Program-made: the position numbers and the translations under genes
IMG/VR virus record: IMGVR_UViG_2541047798_000009
DNA: 47,650 nucleotides
Strand: one strand, 5' to 3'
DNA from: a virus
Taxonomy: Duplodnaviria > Heunggongvirae > Uroviricota > Caudoviricetes
Shown: positions 28,839 through 36,576 of the stretch, one piece after another
Layout of the letters: every line of letters starts with the position of its first letter
Numbering within the stretch: position 1 is the first letter of the stretch
The notes under the pieces: model-generated
Told to the model about the DNA's origin: nothing
Databases searched by the model: none
The model's input: only the letters and a program-made list of their open reading frames with translations

Positions 28839-30800
28839 TCATGCCGCGGCATCCGCGTTGTTCACTTCCACCTTCACACTGTCAATCAGCAGCGTATATG
28901 TCGCCGCCTTTGATATGCCTGTCAGTTGCAGTTTGTCCGCCGCCCCTGATGCCGGAGATTTCACCAGTGTGAACGGCGTCCCCCGTTTCTCATCCAGTAC
29001 CGGCGTCACCTGAATGCTGTTGTTTCCGGCAAACTCAAAAGCCAGTGTGTGCCATCCGTTATCAAAGACCCCGAACGTATCCAGCTTCGCATTCGGCTTC
29101 TTGTGGTGCATCGCGTTCAGGTTCGTCGCATCCGTCTGCAGGAAGAAGGACATCAGCATGTCGTTGCCTTCCTCTGCCAGCGTCACTCCCTCCGGCAGGG
29201 ACGACAACTGCCAGTAAATGCCCAGGGCAAACTGATTCGGCACCAGTGAACCCGGCAACTTAAACCGTACGCTCACACGTCCCCCCTTCTTCAGTAACTC
29301 CACTCCCTGTCCGGCTGCATCATGCTCCAGAAACCAGATGTGGTTTTCCGGTTTATTCAGTTGCAGGGCCTTACCTCCCGTAGCCCCCGCATCACTGACC
29401 ACCGCTTCAGCAATGTTTTTGTTAACATTGTCTCCGCTCGCCGGTTTGTGATAATAGCGCCAGCCCTGTGATGCCAGGTCTTCGCCGGACGCCAGCAGAC
29501 TCATCAGGGTTCGGTTACTGACCGGGGCTTCCGGCTCTCTCTCCGTACCTTCACCGGAAGGTCCGGTGGGCTTCACCGTATCAGGCTGTTTTCCGGTAAT
29601 GAATTCAGCGTTTCTCCCGGCATGCACAAGAATCGCCGTTGCCAGACGGTCGGAAATAATCCCACGACGTGCCCATGATCCAAAATGCGTTTTACGGTCA
29701 GCCGTCGTCCAGGTTTTGGCGTCCGTTCGACCACCGGCTCCGTAATACCCAATATCCGCAACATCCGGATCTTCTGACGGCTCGTTGGTACCCACATTTC
29801 GCCCGTTTTCATCCGTCATAAACGGCACAAAGAAGATTTTTTTTGCGGATTTCGTCTTGTATGCACCATACACCGCATCGTATTGCGAAGAATAAGTCTG
29901 CTTCCAGTAGTAGGTCGTGTCGCCACAAATCCAGGGAACTGATGACGGAGAGCCCCCGAGACACTGACCTCCGAATTCCGACAGGTCAGAACGATATTTT
30001 TCCACCATGGAATCAAACAGCCCCGGCTGAGTGGCGTATGCACCCTGTTTCAAATCAAACTCGCCCTGCATCCAGACCACTGCAAGCAGAATATTTTTAG
30101 GGTTGGCCTTCAGTGCGGCCTGAGTACGGGTAAGCAGGTCCTTGTACAGTGGCTTATCTACACCCCAGCGTGCCGAGGTCTCGCTTGCGCCGGTGGATTC
30201 GCTGAAGGTACCTTCATCGCCCGCCAAAAATGCAGAACCACCACGGCAGCACGGAACCAGAAGAATACCGGCATTCGCCGGAATAAACGGCAACAATTTC
30301 TTCGCGATATGTAATCCCTGCCCCACGCATCCATACTGAGCTGCGCTGGCTTTCGGGTGTGAAAACTTACTCAAATCCTGAACATCATGCAGGCAGTGGT
30401 CCGCAGGAATAATGTCATTGTAGTTACAGGACGCACCACCCGGCGTGACAGTGCTGCGACGCGCCAGCTGTTTAATACGCGGGTCCGGACGGTCATATGT
30501 CTCCGGCAGCGGAAGCCCTTCACCATACGCCATACCGTTTGACTGCCCGGCCAGGGCAACAACAAAGTAATACTCCGGGTTGCTGGTGGTGCTGATAACT
30601 GCGCCTTCTCCATCCGACGGCTTCACCACCACAGGTGTGGTGACATCACCTTCCGCCGCAATGGCCTGCATCAGGGTATAAGGCGTGATGGCCACCGGAC
30701 TGCCAAATGGCTGCCACCCCTCCTTCAGTTTTTGTGTCAGTCGTTTCGCAAGGTCTGACGGCGATGCCGCCCTGACCACGTCATAGTGTTTAAATGCCAT
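28839..30800 (-). CDS. Prophage sialate O-acetylesterase (NanS-p-like: DUF1737 N-domain plus SGNH esterase, 653 aa)
   Basis: N-terminal MAFKHYDVVRAASPSDLAKRLTQKLKEGWQPFGSPV... and size match the large esterase ORF found downstream of stx in Stx phages, as recalled. Confidence 0.8.
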   Translation of the reverse strand: MAFKHYDVVRAASPSDLAKRLTQKLKEGWQPFGSPVAITPYTLMQAIAAEGDVTTPVVVKPSDGEGAVISTTSNPEYYFVVALAGQSNGMAYGEGLPLPETYDRPDPRIKQLARRSTVTPGGASCNYNDIIPADHCLHDVQDLSKFSHPKASAAQYGCVGQGLHIAKKLLPFIPANAGILLVPCCRGGSAFLAGDEGTFSESTGASETSARWGVDKPLYKDLLTRTQAALKANPKNILLAVVWMQGEFDLKQGAYATQPGLFDSMVEKYRSDLSEFGGQCLGGSPSSVPWICGDTTYYWKQTYSSQYDAVYGAYKTKSAKKIFFVPFMTDENGRNVGTNEPSEDPDVADIGYYGAGGRTDAKTWTTADRKTHFGSWARRGIISDRLATAILVHAGRNAEFITGKQPDTVKPTGPSGEGTEREPEAPVSNRTLMSLLASGEDLASQGWRYYHKPASGDNVNKNIAEAVVSDAGATGGKALQLNKPENHIWFLEHDAAGQGVELLKKGGRVSVRFKLPGSLVPNQFALGIYWQLSSLPEGVTLAEEGNDMLMSFFLQTDATNLNAMHHKKPNAKLDTFGVFDNGWHTLAFEFAGNNSIQVTPVLDEKRGTPFTLVKSPASGAADKLQLTGISKAATYTLLIDSVKVEVNNADAAA

Positions 30801-31398
30801 GAATCCTCCCGGCCGGGATAATATTGTGAGTAAAATAAGGAGCGGGCTGAAGTCCGGAAGTTACAGGACAATGGCAGAAGAGAGACGACAGCCCGCAATT
30901 CGAAAAAGACCGCGCAGTTGCGCAGAGTGATTACTATGGGGTATTATTCGTCAGCTGAAATATTACTTCACGTTTTATTGTTTATTCCTTGCCGCCCGCG
31001 TCTCCCAGCGCGGGCTTTTTTTGTCCATAAGAAAGCCCCTCCGGAGAGGGGCTGGAGAGTGGCGCTATGTGCCATTGCATGATGCCGGGTGCCTCCCGGT
31101 GAGTTCAGCCCGGTGACACTGAACCCGCGTCATTCTCGTTTTGATAATCAGAGATTATACCATCACCAGTCGCCCCTCCGCTCAGGGGGATTCACCATGC
31201 CGTTCTCTTTTAACAAATTCGCCGCTAACAGGACAACATTCCGCTTTCTGAGTTGTGAGGAATTTAACACTTCACACCTGTGTGCATTTTCTACAGGCTG
31301 ATCCCAGCACCACAATACATCGCAGGCAACAGAAGCCAAATGCCCCACCACAGAAAAAACATGCAATTATGATTATTGTTTACTGCAAAGATGTAGAA

Positions 31399-31827
31399 TC
31401 ACGGTTTAAAATCCAGCACTCCATTGTGAAATACTTTATATACTTCCGGAGACGGCGGAACTGGTATATCAGCATGCTTCACCGCATTCATCGCTTCACG
31501 ACATAAATCGGGGTCTCCACCTTCTCTTTTAACCTGTAGCAGAAGACCATTCGGGGCCATATACATTCTCAGTGAACACTCTTTTCCTGAATACTTACTC
31601 GCATCCTTTAACTGTTCTTCTATGGCTTTCCTGACCTGAATGGCATACTGCCTGATTTCTTCACTGGCATCAGGGGTACGTTCCGATGAGCTCAAATTTT
31701 GCGACTTTATTAATTTATCTGAGTGATACAGAGAAGCATCATAATTATTTGTCGATACATCTTTTGTGCAGCCAGTTGTCAGACTGGCTAATATCAAAAC
31801 AAGAACTGGTACAGCACGGCAATACAT
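31399..31827 (-). CDS. Lipoprotein of unknown function (142 aa; possible TolA/TonB C-terminal-like fold)
   Basis: Signal peptide with lipobox LTTGC; occupies the slot between the tRNAs and the esterase where stx sits in Stx phages. Confidence 0.5.
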   Translation of the reverse strand: MYCRAVPVLVLILASLTTGCTKDVSTNNYDASLYHSDKLIKSQNLSSSERTPDASEEIRQYAIQVRKAIEEQLKDASKYSGKECSLRMYMAPNGLLLQVKREGGDPDLCREAMNAVKHADIPVPPSPEVYKVFHNGVLDFKP

Positions 31828-32105
31828 TTATCCATCTCCATATTAACAAGAACAATTATCTATAAAATATAGTAAATATGCGGGATCCGGGAGGACTTGT
31901 AACTATCATCTCCGGATCAGCATGTAGTTTTTATTTTTCCGGATGATATATGCCGCAATAATACCTCTGCATACAGATGCCTGCAAATATCTGCGAAGCA
32001 TCCGGCGAGAATAAACAAGGAAGTCTGAGGCTATCTTATATGATAGCCTGTTGCTCAAAAGACAATGATTCACTCATCAGAACCAACAACGCATAATGCA
32101 GATAA

Positions 32106-32182
32106 TGGACCGCCATCGAGGACTCGAACCCCGCGCAGCCAGCTTCGAAGGCTGGCGCTCTATCCCGATGAGCTAATGGCGG
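32106..32182 (-). tRNA. tRNA-Arg (anticodon UCG by hand folding)
   Basis: Hand-folded cloverleaf: 7-bp acceptor, D-arm GCTC/GAGC, anticodon stem CCAGC/GCTGG with loop CTTCGAA, T-arm CGGGG-TTCGAGT-CCTCG, CCA encoded. Confidence 0.7.
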
Positions 32183-32191
32183 TATGTGATA

Positions 32192-32267
32192 TGGTGGCCC
32201 TTGCTGGATTTGAACCAGCGACCTGGCGATTATGAGTCGCTCGCTCTCACCACTGAGCTAAAGGGCC
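32192..32267 (-). tRNA. tRNA-Ile2 (anticodon CAU, ileX/ileZ-like)
   Basis: Sequence GGCCCTTTAGCTCAGTGGTGAGAGCGAGCGACTCATAATCGCCAGGTCGCTGGTTCAAATCCAGCAAGGGCCACCA is very close to E. coli ileX as recalled; anticodon loop CTCATAA. Confidence 0.8.
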
Positions 32268-32307
32268 GGGCGCAGGATAATAACGGTACGTAACTAATTC
32301 TGCAATA

Positions 32308-32646
32308 TCATCCGTTCTGACTGACTAAATCCTGAACTTCCCGAACCGTCTGCTCAAAACGTTCAGTCTCCAGCTCAACGCCTGTAGCACGACGGCCCAG
32401 TGCCAGTGCAGCTTTAACTGTTGAACCTGACCCCATAAAAAAATCTGCAACCAGGTCACCCGGACGACTGCTTGCGCTGATTATCTGCTGCAGCATTTCT
32501 GCCGGTTTTTCGCACGGATGTTTCCCGGGATAGAACTGCACCGGTTTATGCGTCCAGACATCGGTATACGGCACCTGCGCCGTCACGCCAAAATACCGCC
32601 GCAGTCGGCATTCACAACCACCAGCGCATTTAACGTTCAGGCACAA
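32308..32646 (-). pseudogene. C-terminal fragment of a DNA N6/N4 methyltransferase (truncated at about 32640)
   Basis: Contains ...FYPGKHPCEKPAEMLQQIISASSRPGDLVADFFMGSGSTVKAALALGRRATGVE (AdoMet-binding motif) but no catalytic DPPY region; upstream sequence switches abruptly to AT-rich porin promoter DNA. Confidence 0.6.
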
Positions 32647-33096
32647 AAAAACCCGCTCGACGGCGGGTTTAAGCTGTGTGACGAAGTAACCACTCTTAAC
32701 AGCATAACCAATTTTTTACGTACGTAAACTACTAAATGATATTTGTGAGAATGCCACCGAGTGTTCAAAACACCACCACAAATACATAAGAAAACCTCAA
32801 CAAATAACCAATGAATAATTTCCGATGTTATTTTTAGGTTGTTTAAATTAAGCCAAAAAATTATAGGGCGCTTATAAATAAGTGTCATTAATATAAATTA
32901 GCTAATAGATTTATTTTTGTTCAAACAAGAGCCATGAATAGGATTAGATAGAAAAGGTTCAGATAAAAATAGAGATCTACGTCACAAATTAAATGAGAAA
33001 CTAAAACTTACATCTTGAAATAATCACATTGATTAGATGAATATTTATCGCGCAGTGACATCATTTTTTTATAATAGTTCAAAAAAAGGGCGTACA

Positions 33097-34179
33097 ATGA
33101 AAAAATTAACAGTGGCAATTTCTGCTGTAGCTGCATCAGTACTGATGGCGATGTCTGCTCAGGCAGCTGAAATTTATAATAAAGACAGTAACAAGCTGGA
33201 TCTATACGGGAAAGTTAATGCCAAGCACTACTTCTCCTCTAATGATGCAGATGATGGTGATACTACTTATGCTCGTCTTGGCTTCAAAGGTGAAACCCAA
33301 ATCAACGATCAACTGACTGGTTTCGGTCAGTGGGAATATGACTTCAAAGGCAACCGTGCTGAATCTCAAGGTTCTTCCAAAGACAAAACCCGTCTTGCAT
33401 TTGCAGGCCTGAAATTTGGTGATTACGGCTCAATCGATTACGGTCGTAACTACGGTGTAGCATACGACATCGGTGCGTGGACTGACGTTCTGCCAGAATT
33501 CGGTGGTGATACCTGGACCCAGACAGATGTGTTCATGACTGGCCGCACTACTGGTGTTGCAACTTATCGTAACAACGACTTCTTTGGTCTGGTCGATGGC
33601 CTGAACTTTGCTGCTCAGTATCAGGGTAAAAATGACCGCACTGACGTAACTGAAGCCAATGGTGATGGTTTCGGTTTCTCCACTACTTATGAGTATGAAG
33701 GATTCGGCGTGGGTGCAACCTATGCTAAATCAGATCGCACTGACGGTCAGGTCGCCTATGGTAAGAGCAAATTCAATGCCTCCGGCAAAAATGCGGAAGT
33801 ATGGGCTGCAGGCCTGAAATATGATGCGAACAATATCTATCTGGCTACCACATATTCTGAAACTCAGAATATGACCGTTTTTGGTAATAACCATATTGCA
33901 AACAAAGCACAAAACTTTGAAGCAGTAGCACAATATCAGTTTGACTTCGGTCTGCGCCCATCTGTTGCTTACCTTCAGTCAAAAGGTAAAGACCTTGGTG
34001 TTCATGGTGACCGAGACTTAGTCAAGTATGTCGATGTCGGTGCTACTTACTACTTTAATAAAAACATGTCCACTTTTGTTGATTACAAAATCAACTTAAT
34101 TGACGATAGTAAGTTTACCAAAACAGCTGGTATTGATACCGACGACATCGTCGCTGTAGGTCTGGTTTATCAGTTCTAA
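33097..34179 (+). CDS. Outer-membrane porin (OmpC/OmpF/NmpC/Lc family, 361 aa)
   Basis: Signal peptide [23 protein letters not shown] then [23 protein letters not shown]... and C-terminal ...[11 protein letters not shown]-rich promoter region upstream; antisense to late transcription as nmpC is in DLP12. Confidence 0.9.
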
Positions 34180-34367
34180 TCTGACTTACGAAAAAGATAT
34201 GTTGCGGGAGGCTTTGCCTCCCCAACATATAAGTGGAGCCCTCAAGCCACTTCCTTTAGAAGCACTACCTTGCTTCTTACTATATAAACCTTCTGTTATA
34301 TATTACCCTTTATTTTGGGGGCGTTTCCACGCCCCATTTTTAATAACTTTTAGTAAATAATTGCATA

Positions 34368-34760
34368 TCAATTAGAATTATTAGCAACGATATCCATATC
34401 TAACCGGATATCTAATGCCATTAACATCCCTTCAATTATGCCCTCAGCCTTCTGTAACCTTTTCCCGATATAACCATCCGAGCAGCAATGCTTACTTGCC
34501 AGTGACATGAATGTCATACCACATACATAATAATCTACTAATAAATCGTGTAAATCGCTGTTGTTCTTTTTCAGACGGGCCATGCACCCGCAAATGATCA
34601 TCGCGTCATCGTCACAACATTGCGGGCGAGATTTTACTTTTGAAGGAATTAATCCCTTAAAACCGGCAGCAATGGACGACCAGGTCACATCCTCATGATT
34701 ATTTGCCGCCCATGCGCCCCAGCGTTCAAGAACCATCTGAATATCACGCATTATTCGCAC
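34368..34760 (-). CDS. Late-gene antiterminator Q (DLP12 QuuD-like, 130 aa, GTG start)
   Basis: [60 protein letters not shown]... matches QuuD as recalled. Confidence 0.88.
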
Positions 34761-35608
34761 TCACCAACCAGATTGAGAATGACCGCTGCACCGTCGTCTT
34801 CCATGCATTCACCCTTACCACTTGCCAGAAACCAGCGGCACGCCTCCACGGCTTCAGCGCGTGTCACCGGTTTGATGGTTGCCAGCAATTTTTCAAGGTA
34901 GCGCTCCCGGTCATATACCGATTCGTGATGCTCAGAGTAACCAAACTCATCGCCCTGTTCTTTAGTTGCAGTGTGGCGAACACTGTAGAGCCAGTCCCAG
35001 TAAACGAACTCGCGAACAACATCAGACAGCGTATAAGGCTCAGGCAGCACATCGCGATATCCATCAACAAATGCCCGACGCTGTTCATCAATTTCGGTCA
35101 TGCGGCTGCCGCCAATGCTTCCGGCTTTTTTCTCTGCCGCAGTCCAGCCCCAGAGATGATCGTTGATAAATTTCTGGGAAGACCTGATGACCCGCTCTGC
35201 TTCCACATCTTCGAGCGCTGCTTCATAGCTACCAAACATAGCCCTGACTGATGCCGCTTTTTTGATGTTCTCCCGGGCGTTCCTGATAACCTGCGCAGGG
35301 TTATCCATGCCGATGATGCCGAACGCAACCTGGAAAGGTTCGTAACCATTCGCCAGCAGATAACGCGAATAGCGTTCCTGAGCCTCTTTTGGGGAAATTT
35401 TAATTTTCACCAGCGCAGCCTCAGCAGCATCCAGATGTGCGGGTTCGTTCAGACGGATAACCTCCAGCACCCAAAGATAAGCATCAGTCTGCTTATGCCC
35501 GGTGATTCTCCGTTGCTCTGGCAGGGGCTTGATGTTTGCGAGGGCGGAGCTGTACGCTGCCGTCGGGATGGTGAATAGTGCTTTATGTTCGTTATTATCA
35601 GTACGCAT
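34751..35608 (-). CDS. Hypothetical protein (285 aa) in the nin-equivalent region upstream of Q
   Basis: Long ORF coupled to neighbouring genes; no domain recognised. Confidence 0.5.
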
Positions 35609-36576
35609 TACGCAACCGCCTTTTTCTTATGGAAAACCAGCTCTCGAACCTGATCACCGTTCATGAGCATATTGTTGAAATCATCGTGATCCGGCCAGTA
35701 CACGCTCACGCGCTGCAGGTCATTCTTTGCCATCAGATTGGCATGAGCACATTCGCAAGCCGCAGCCAGCCCGGTGGCGCTGTTCTCGTCACGGTCGGCA
35801 AAAATAATCAGGTGCAGAACACCAGCTGGTACGCGAAACTTTTTCATAAAGCCGCTGTTAATGGTTGCCCAGGTGTTCACGTTATAAATCTGGTGCGCTG
35901 ACAGCGCTGTTTCGATGCCTTCGGCGATACCCAGAGTGCTGGCGACAGGAAACATGCGGATAGCTACAGAACGAGCGTGATCCAAATAGTTATCTTCCTG
36001 CAGGGATTTGAGGCGCTTTGCACTGCTACCGATATCTGCTTTTTTATCACCATCAAGCAGAGTCTGGTGCAGATAGCACAACTCCCCTTTATCGTCCGTA
36101 GCAAGTGAATAAAGAGACTGGAACACACTCCCGTTGTGTCTCTGCCTGGCATTGAACCGGATCGCCTCAGCAGGAAGACTGAATATTCCACGAGAATTAA
36201 GATACGCTGCGCCGGATGTACCACGCAGTGCCTCCAGTTTTGAAAACTTGCTCAATACCCGTTTGCGTAAGCTGGTGGCGCTGCTGGTTACCGGGATTTT
36301 AACCCGTTGGTAATCATTACCGATCAGGCGGTCTATTTCGGTACAAATCTCGTTAAATGGCTTCGCCTGTGTCAGGGTGACAAGTTTCATACCATCGCCA
36401 CTACCACATACACAGATCCACGTTCCTGCACCGTCGCGGTCGTCAATTCGGAACTTGCCACGTGCACCGCATACCGGGCATTCACCCTTGAAGTGATTTT
36501 TTCCGGTTATCGGCGGCAGACCGAAGTGCTCTAATATTTCAGGCCAGCGGCCTTTCGCTGCATCTGCTGTTTTCAT
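35608..36576 (-). CDS. DNA primase (zinc-ribbon plus Toprim domain, 322 aa)
   Basis: CPVCGARGKFRIDDRDGAGTWICVCG zinc ribbon; Toprim motifs GIAEGIETALS and LIIFADRDENSATG. Confidence 0.8.
   Translation of the reverse strand: MKTADAAKGRWPEILEHFGLPPITGKNHFKGECPVCGARGKFRIDDRDGAGTWICVCGSGDGMKLVTLTQAKPFNEICTEIDRLIGNDYQRVKIPVTSSATSLRKRVLSKFSKLEALRGTSGAAYLNSRGIFSLPAEAIRFNARQRHNGSVFQSLYSLATDDKGELCYLHQTLLDGDKKADIGSSAKRLKSLQEDNYLDHARSVAIRMFPVASTLGIAEGIETALSAHQIYNVNTWATINSGFMKKFRVPAGVLHLIIFADRDENSATGLAAACECAHANLMAKNDLQRVSVYWPDHDDFNNMLMNGDQVRELVFHKKKAVA

Follow-up and report, generated by a model that had tools for sequence, protein, structure and literature searches.

Organization of the late-control region

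We analysed a stretch of 47,650 nucleotides (nt) from a virus of the Caudoviricetes (IMG/VR record IMGVR_UViG_2541047798_000009; the whole stretch is hereafter called the window), focusing on the interval between the late antiterminator gene Q and the late genes, in which a porin gene, a homologue of the small RNA gene ipeX, the late promoter pR' and a piece of a DNA methylase gene are found. The prophage genes are oriented on the - strand. In falling coordinates, from Q to the late genes, the order is Q, a porin gene on the + strand, an AT-rich spacer, the methylase fragment and two tRNA genes; beyond the tRNA genes, in the same direction, there follow a small open reading frame (ORF) with a TolA domain, a nanS-p-like esterase gene, and then the lysis and structural genes. 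The porin gene is thus convergent with Q and lies between Q and the lysis and late genes, an order also found in DLP12, 4A7 and 434B, and both the porin and the Q reading frames are intact. The region is very probably a standard lambdoid late-control region that has undergone two independent rearrangements, both already known, the gain of a porin-ipeX cassette and a deletion within a methylase gene. The coordinates of all features are collected in Table 1.

The porin cassette

The porin gene encodes a full-length Porin_1 protein (504 bits in a Pfam profile search), which shares 90.4% identity with Lc and with the K-12 NmpC reconstructed across IS5, and 99.4% identity with the porin of phage 4A7. 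At the nucleotide level, positions 32647-34420 show 98.8% megablast identity to phages 4A7, 4C10, ev017 and others, in which the porin and antiterminator Q are annotated, and the PA-2 lc record J02580 could be aligned at 87.8% over positions 32647-34405. The porin promoter region contains the CRP site of the PA-2 annotation (32969-32989), and the second CRP site annotated in J02580 corresponds to 32674-32694, within the pR' leader. For Lc, control by glucose or temperature has been reported. These alignments support the assignment of 32647-34405 to the DLP12 nmpC / PA-2 lc module. At one edge, homology to 933W ends upstream of the -35 element of pR', and at the other it ends past codon 123 of Q (...RLDMD); the cassette was therefore taken to span about 32732-34391. 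To judge from these edges, the porin-ipeX cassette of about 1.66 kb is a moron placed between Q and pR'.

The Q protein matches PF06530 with 181 bits in Pfam and shares 96% identity with QuuD of DLP12 and 80% with Q of 933W; it also distantly matches the Q21 structures (E 4e-8). Its 80% identity to Q of 933W suggests that Q and the 933W-type pR' of the window form a cognate pair.

The ipeX region downstream of the porin gene

The porin stop codon and the + strand terminator delimit a segment of 169 nt (34177-34345). The ipeX gene was defined in K-12 DLP12 and in PA-2; an alignment of the segment with either sequence shows 161 identities in 170 positions (94.7%), and with 4A7 there are 168 in 169. 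IpeX, for which our background is drawn from reviews, is a DLP12 RNA of 167 nt that is part of the porin transcript and is processed from it (PMC12197685), so that the homologue in the window matches the reference both in position and in size (169 nt versus 167 nt). IpeX controls OmpC without simple complementarity (PMC12197685; IpeX is also treated in PMC3617542 and PMC10690425), and in the literature it is described to reduce host OmpC and OmpF post-transcriptionally, with no obvious base-pairing. By homology with DLP12 and PA-2, we infer that IpeX is made here as the 3' end of the porin transcript. A preliminary description of this DNA, made from its letters alone, had pointed to a resemblance to the DLP12 nmpC and PA-2 lc modules, which the alignments bear out. 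It had also seen two hairpins downstream of the porin, the second followed by T-rich sequence. Both are present, as H1 and H5, but they are two of five hairpins.

The + strand of the ipeX region folds into these five hairpins with a predicted energy of -54.4 kcal/mol (z -7.07), which was equalled by none of 200 shuffled sequences, whereas the - strand folds at z -3.7. Two of the hairpins resemble terminators, each for one direction. The U-run of H5 is found on the + strand only, and that of H1 on the - strand only (CUUUUUC, 34196-34190). H1 therefore reads as a terminator of the transcript from the Q side and not of the porin transcript. It folds at -22.7 kcal/mol (z -5.9) when read on the - strand, although about half of the variants have only 4 U in its U-run, and we regard it as a candidate terminator of transcripts that come out of the Q gene.

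We then compared the structure among 12 ipeX variants of 92-100% identity. Standard pairs make up 99.6% of the pair cells in these variants. Varying columns are found at 3 of 84 paired positions and at 16 of 86 unpaired positions (P = 0.003, Fisher's exact test), that is, the substitutions are mostly located in the loops. It is worth noting that one A-to-G change in H3 yields a G-U pair on the + strand, but would yield a C-A mismatch on the - strand.

The late promoter pR' and its leader hairpin

In 933W, the sequence at the end of Q is annotated with promoter pR', a qut site and a rho-independent terminator, and its counterpart in the window is the 92-nt segment 32640-32731 (78% identity). 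With 32640-32960 as the query of a distant search, this segment matched hundreds of Shiga toxin (Stx) phages at 78-79%. On the - strand, the -35 element TTTACG (32728-32723) and the -10 element TATGCT (32706-32701) are separated by a 16-nt spacer, the start of transcription is predicted near 32694, and the octamer aligned to the 933W "qut" annotation is located at 32686-32679. These elements are followed by a hairpin with seven U residues (32670-32645; AAACCCGCCGUCGAGCGGGUUUUUUU; -16.4 kcal/mol), which is the sole strong intrinsic-terminator-like site from pR' to the tRNA genes. This hairpin is homologous to the "possible rho-independent terminator" annotated in 933W, and it is kept in DLP12, 4A7, PA-2, PhiR49_2 and Stx2a_1447. 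The start of a 933W-type pR' adjoining Q has been mapped by differential RNA sequencing in the Stx phages of Sakai (PMC7547250). Here pR' does not directly follow the Q gene, as the 1.66-kb cassette intervenes, which is also the case in DLP12, PA-2 and 4A7. The assignment of late control to Q and pR' is thus a homology-based one, in which both the use of the promoter and termination at the leader hairpin are predicted.

The AT-rich spacer also contains a near-consensus sigma-70 promoter sequence on the - strand, ATGACA-17-TATAAT, that points toward pR'. It was considered as pR' itself and dropped, because its -35 element is not conserved in DLP12 and 4A7 and the homology to 933W favours 32728-32701. 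The number of promoter matches in the whole region is not above that in shuffled sequences in the promoter scan. For the DLP12 lysis operon, the primer positions given in PMC7918800, a secondary source, place the forward primer inside nmpC and would put the "+1" near window position 33048, implying a start of transcription much closer to nmpC.

The methylase remnant and the origin of the junctions

The methylase fragment is identical at 96 of 99 residues (97%) to residues 254-352 of the 352-residue methylase of Stx2a_1447 (BLASTP), and it covers only positions 135-220 of the 221 positions of the PF01555 profile in Pfam. The N-terminal 72% of the protein is missing. The fragment retains the FxGxG S-adenosylmethionine motif but lacks the catalytic DPPY motif, which in the full-length protein is found at about residue 35, and the same sequence is designated a pseudogene "missing N-terminus" by the Prokaryotic Genome Annotation Pipeline (PGAP) in strain CE10. 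To judge from these losses, the N6/N4 DNA methylase remnant is inactive.

The mechanical ORF extends to a TTG codon at 32646, but the stretch past 32607 is not methylase sequence, and the deletion joins the interior of the methylase gene at about 32605-32610. Positions 32608-32644 resemble, except for a 13-nt indel, the sequence just 3' of the leader hairpin in Stx2a_1447, where the hairpin is followed by a 65-codon ORF and then by the full-length methylase. This arrangement indicates a deletion of about 1.2 kb in the window, which took out the small ORF and the first 253 methylase codons. In PhiR49_2, the identical deletion junction, leader hairpin and methylase remnant directly follow its own Q-pR' and there is no porin; conversely, 4A7, DLP12 and PA-2 have the porin cassette, with pR' and then the holin gene after it, but no methylase remnant. 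It follows that the insertion of the porin and the deletion of the methylase were independent events. The sequence that PhiR49_2 has in common with DLP12, 4A7 and PA-2 is confined to 55 bp around the hairpin (32647-32701), and it is there that the window changes partner. The porin cassette and the dead methylase thus appear to have been joined by recombination in the conserved pR' leader and not by a single cut.

933W keeps a remnant of the same methylase of about 110 bp just upstream of its tRNA promoter (window 32308-32418 corresponds to 933W segment 1175-1285). As this remnant is even shorter, the methylase seems to have been eroded independently, and to differing extents, among Stx-type phages.

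These results modify the picture given in the preliminary description, which had seen one mosaic junction where a methylase gene was cut off at about 32640, exactly at the AT-rich promoter of a porin oriented against late transcription. The gene is indeed truncated, but its homology ends at about 32607, and some 125 bp (32608-32731) with pR', the qut equivalent and the hairpin with its U7 intervene before the porin promoter region. The shift toward AT-rich sequence is also real, as the G+C content drops from 0.54 (32500-32699) to 0.29 (32700-32899) with the fall between about 32650 and 32750. However, its place at about 32700-32730 makes it the edge of the cassette and not that of the methylase. 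Instead of one junction, two independent events took place, one on either side of the pR' region. Furthermore, pR' lies beyond the porin and fires away from it, so that the porin is not set against late transcription and only transcription exiting Q converges on it.

Table 1. Features of the region between Q and the late genes, in window coordinates
Feature	Position	Strand	Basis or remark
tRNA-Arg(TCG)	32106-32182	-	ARAGORN; Rfam tRNA matches; CE10 annotation; 91% identity to 933W tRNA region
tRNA with CAT anticodon, ileZ-type (tRNA-Ile in PGAP)	32192-32267	-	ARAGORN; Rfam; CE10; 91% identity to 933W tRNA region
Methylase remnant, codons 254-352 of 352	32308-32607	-	BLASTP; Pfam PF01555, C-terminal part; PGAP pseudogene
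Short late-leader piece 3' of leader hairpin	32608-32644	-	Identical in PhiR49_2
Leader hairpin and U7, candidate tR'	32645-32670	-	Terminator scan; fold; 933W homology
Putative late promoter pR'	32679-32728	-	Homology to annotated 933W pR'/qut/terminator
AT-rich porin-ipeX cassette (moron)	32732-34391		Loss of 933W homology at both edges; G+C profile
Promoter-like match ATGACA-17-TATAAT	32860-32888	-	Promoter scan, 11/12
Counterpart of CRP-binding site annotated in PA-2	32969-32989		J02580 annotation, exact word match
OmpC-family porin, NmpC/Lc type, 360 residues with signal peptide	33097-34179	+	Pfam Porin_1
ipeX homologue, porin 3' untranslated region	34177-34345	+	Identity to K-12 DLP12 and PA-2; fold
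H1 as candidate - strand terminator	34190-34230	-	Fold and U-run
Hairpin H1	34197-34230	+	-23.3 kcal/mol, z -6.4
Hairpin H2	34231-34252	+	
Hairpin H3	34258-34277	+	
Hairpin H4	34281-34302	+	
Hairpin H5, predicted rho-independent terminator	34318-34335	+	Followed by AUUUUUAAUA
Late antiterminator Q, QuuD/Q933W type	34368-34751	-	Pfam PF06530; identity to QuuD and Q933W

A model of the region and alternative explanations

If the region works as its homologues suggest, the porin would be transcribed in the lysogen from its own promoter region, its transcript would end at H5, and the 3' part would yield IpeX. IpeX may then lower OmpC and OmpF, and the prophage would in this way replace the major porins of the cell with its own. 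Upon induction, Q made from the early operon would act at pR', and the Q-modified polymerase would pass the leader hairpin and its U7 into the methylase remnant, the tRNA genes and the late genes, away from the porin.

Several observations weigh against this model. On the side of IpeX, the RNA was isolated as a multicopy suppressor (PMC3617542), which makes its strength at single copy uncertain. There are no compensatory base changes among the 12 variants, whose sequences are too similar, and the structure therefore rests on thermodynamics and on the placement of substitutions and is not proven by covariation. A scan of 30500-36000 against Rfam (E<=1), which contains no IpeX model to score against, returned no IpeX or StxS family but only tRNAs, STnc100 and a chance-level Trp_leader match on the pR' hairpin. 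On the side of late control, the pR' hexamers match the consensus at only 4/6 and 4/6 positions, and a better match is found at 32888-32860. In addition, the pR' transcript of the Sakai Stx phages reaches a second terminator 258 nt downstream (PMC7547250), which suggests that the homologous first hairpin may be leaky, and in the window no equally strong terminator follows the leader hairpin before the tRNA genes.

Some of these points would be accommodated if the 3' region were only a nested pair of convergent terminators shielding the porin gene and Q from each other, with no role in trans at natural copy number. The one-way U-runs of H5 and H1 are what such an arrangement would produce, the multicopy isolation of IpeX and the lack of covariation are in line with it, and the predicted RNA duplexes of IpeX with the ompC, ompF and own-porin leaders are no better than those of dinucleotide shuffles (0.11, 0.05 and 0.53, respectively), albeit by a crude method. 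We nevertheless regard insulation as unlikely to be the whole function, since two terminators need none of the conserved hairpins H2-H4, the 169 nt are kept at 92-100% across phages whose porin genes differ by 10%, and the repression of OmpC and OmpF has been ascribed to the ipeX segment in published work (PMC12197685, PMC10690425). The same pair of one-way terminators would leave an overlap of about 150 nt (34190-34343) if the - strand transcript were the functional one, with the Q mRNA running through the ipeX region to H1. The ipeX segment would then be the exact overlap of the convergent Q and porin transcription units, the 3' end of the Q mRNA would be perfectly antisense to IpeX, and pairing between the Q mRNA and the porin/IpeX RNA could lead to mutual regulation, a safeguard of lysogeny versus lysis like paQ of lambda. 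A transcript for lysogenic conversion could in that case damp leaky Q expression, or the reverse could happen on induction, which would link porin conversion to the lysis decision and provide a cis-antisense rationale for IpeX, whose mechanism in trans stays unclear. The - strand does fold well, but the + strand fold is far more exceptional; moreover, the shortening of the - strand U-run in roughly half the variants argues against this possibility, as does the H3 change, which suits the + strand and not the - strand, and we hold both the antisense overlap itself and a regulatory pairing built on it to be rather improbable.

The 3' region might also encode a small protein, as an ATG-initiated ORF of 53 codons (34199-34360, + strand) spans it in the window and in 4A7, and a small coding sequence is annotated there in one phage record. 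However, a stop codon and frameshifts shorten this ORF to 26 codons in most homologues and to 10 in one, most changes within it alter the amino acid, and its start codon falls in the stem of H1 and lacks a clear ribosome-binding site. The ORF was rejected as coding because its frame is not conserved, and a protein product is highly improbable. The model in which the porin transcript yields IpeX and Q acts at pR' remains the one that we favour.

Relatives and distribution

The closest well-described counterpart is the cryptic prophage DLP12 (qsr') of K-12, which has the same succession of Q (QuuD), convergent porin and ipeX, and then pR' and the hairpin, the last two being essentially identical. 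The two differ in the porin gene, which IS5 disrupts close to the 3' end in K-12 (nmpC) but which is intact in the window, and in what follows the hairpin, namely the holin gene essD in DLP12 and the methylase remnant with Stx-phage-type tRNAs here. In PA-2, the similarity of the lysogenic-conversion gene lc (protein 2) runs across the promoter region, CRP sites, porin, 3' region and pR' hairpin at the 87.8% DNA identity given above, while the porin diverges by 10% with two small indels and the neighbouring late genes are others. Temperate lambdoid phages such as 4A7, 4C10, ev017 and PhiR11_1 share the stretch from hairpin through porin to Q at 98.8%. In these phages the holin gene lies 139 bp past the hairpin, whereas the window turns to a PhiR49_2/Stx-type segment within 32647-32701. 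933W has the homologous -35, -10, initial transcribed region and first hairpin, with the methylase remnant, tRNA promoter and tRNAs downstream. Its pR' overlaps the end of Q, in contrast to the window, in which the cassette separates the two. The leader of 933W, the source of StxS, also runs about 200 nt further to a second terminator and yields StxS, and this part is absent from the window.

We further noticed that in Stx2a_1447 the interval between Q and the pR' homologue (segment 5375-6938) contains two + strand ORFs of 343 and 179 codons without a Pfam match. With a different antisense cassette at the same place, the interval between Q and pR' looks like a recurrent insertion site for cargo, of which the window provides a clean example.

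Nearly half of the complete Escherichia coli genomes (2,501 of 5,426) carry the ipeX segment. The exact junction of remnant, pR' and cassette is found in 20 complete E. coli genomes, including CE10 (O7:K1) and FDAARGOS_1283, at 99.7-99.9% identity. The porin cassette with its IpeX region, Q and pR' have thus all been described before, and near-identical copies exist in public genomes, so that the region carries little weight as a discovery and its value lies in annotation. The PGAP labels in CE10 are "OmpC" for the porin and QuuD for Q, and ipeX and pR' are unannotated in the RefSeq records examined (CE10 and K-12 MG1655). The "OmpC" label hides a lysogenic-conversion module that may lower host OmpC and OmpF, and this bears on the permeability to antibiotics and on phage receptors of clinical strains, of which CE10 is one.

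Neighbouring genes

Between the tRNA genes and the nanS-p-like esterase gene, at the position that stx occupies in Stx phages, lies a - strand ORF of 142 codons (31399-31827), which combines a TolA C-terminal domain (PF06519, E 4e-23) with a signal of the lipoprotein type (LILASLTTGC). It is named "tolA" by PGAP in CE10, and for the DNA at about 31276-32085 that contains it megablast returned no match among the phages of the collection. This ORF may be cargo that interferes with the entry of Tol-dependent colicins or filamentous phages. Just upstream of the esterase gene, a full-length match to the Rfam small RNA family STnc100 was found at 31023-31229 on the - strand (158 bits, against a gathering score of 47), and the DNA flanking it is 88-93% identical to Stx and wrbA-type prophages. 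The esterase gene itself (28839-30800, - strand) is an ORF of 653 codons with DUF1737, SASA (sialate O-acetylesterase) and DUF6645 domains, a NanS-p-type esterase typical of Stx prophages that is found here in a prophage without stx.

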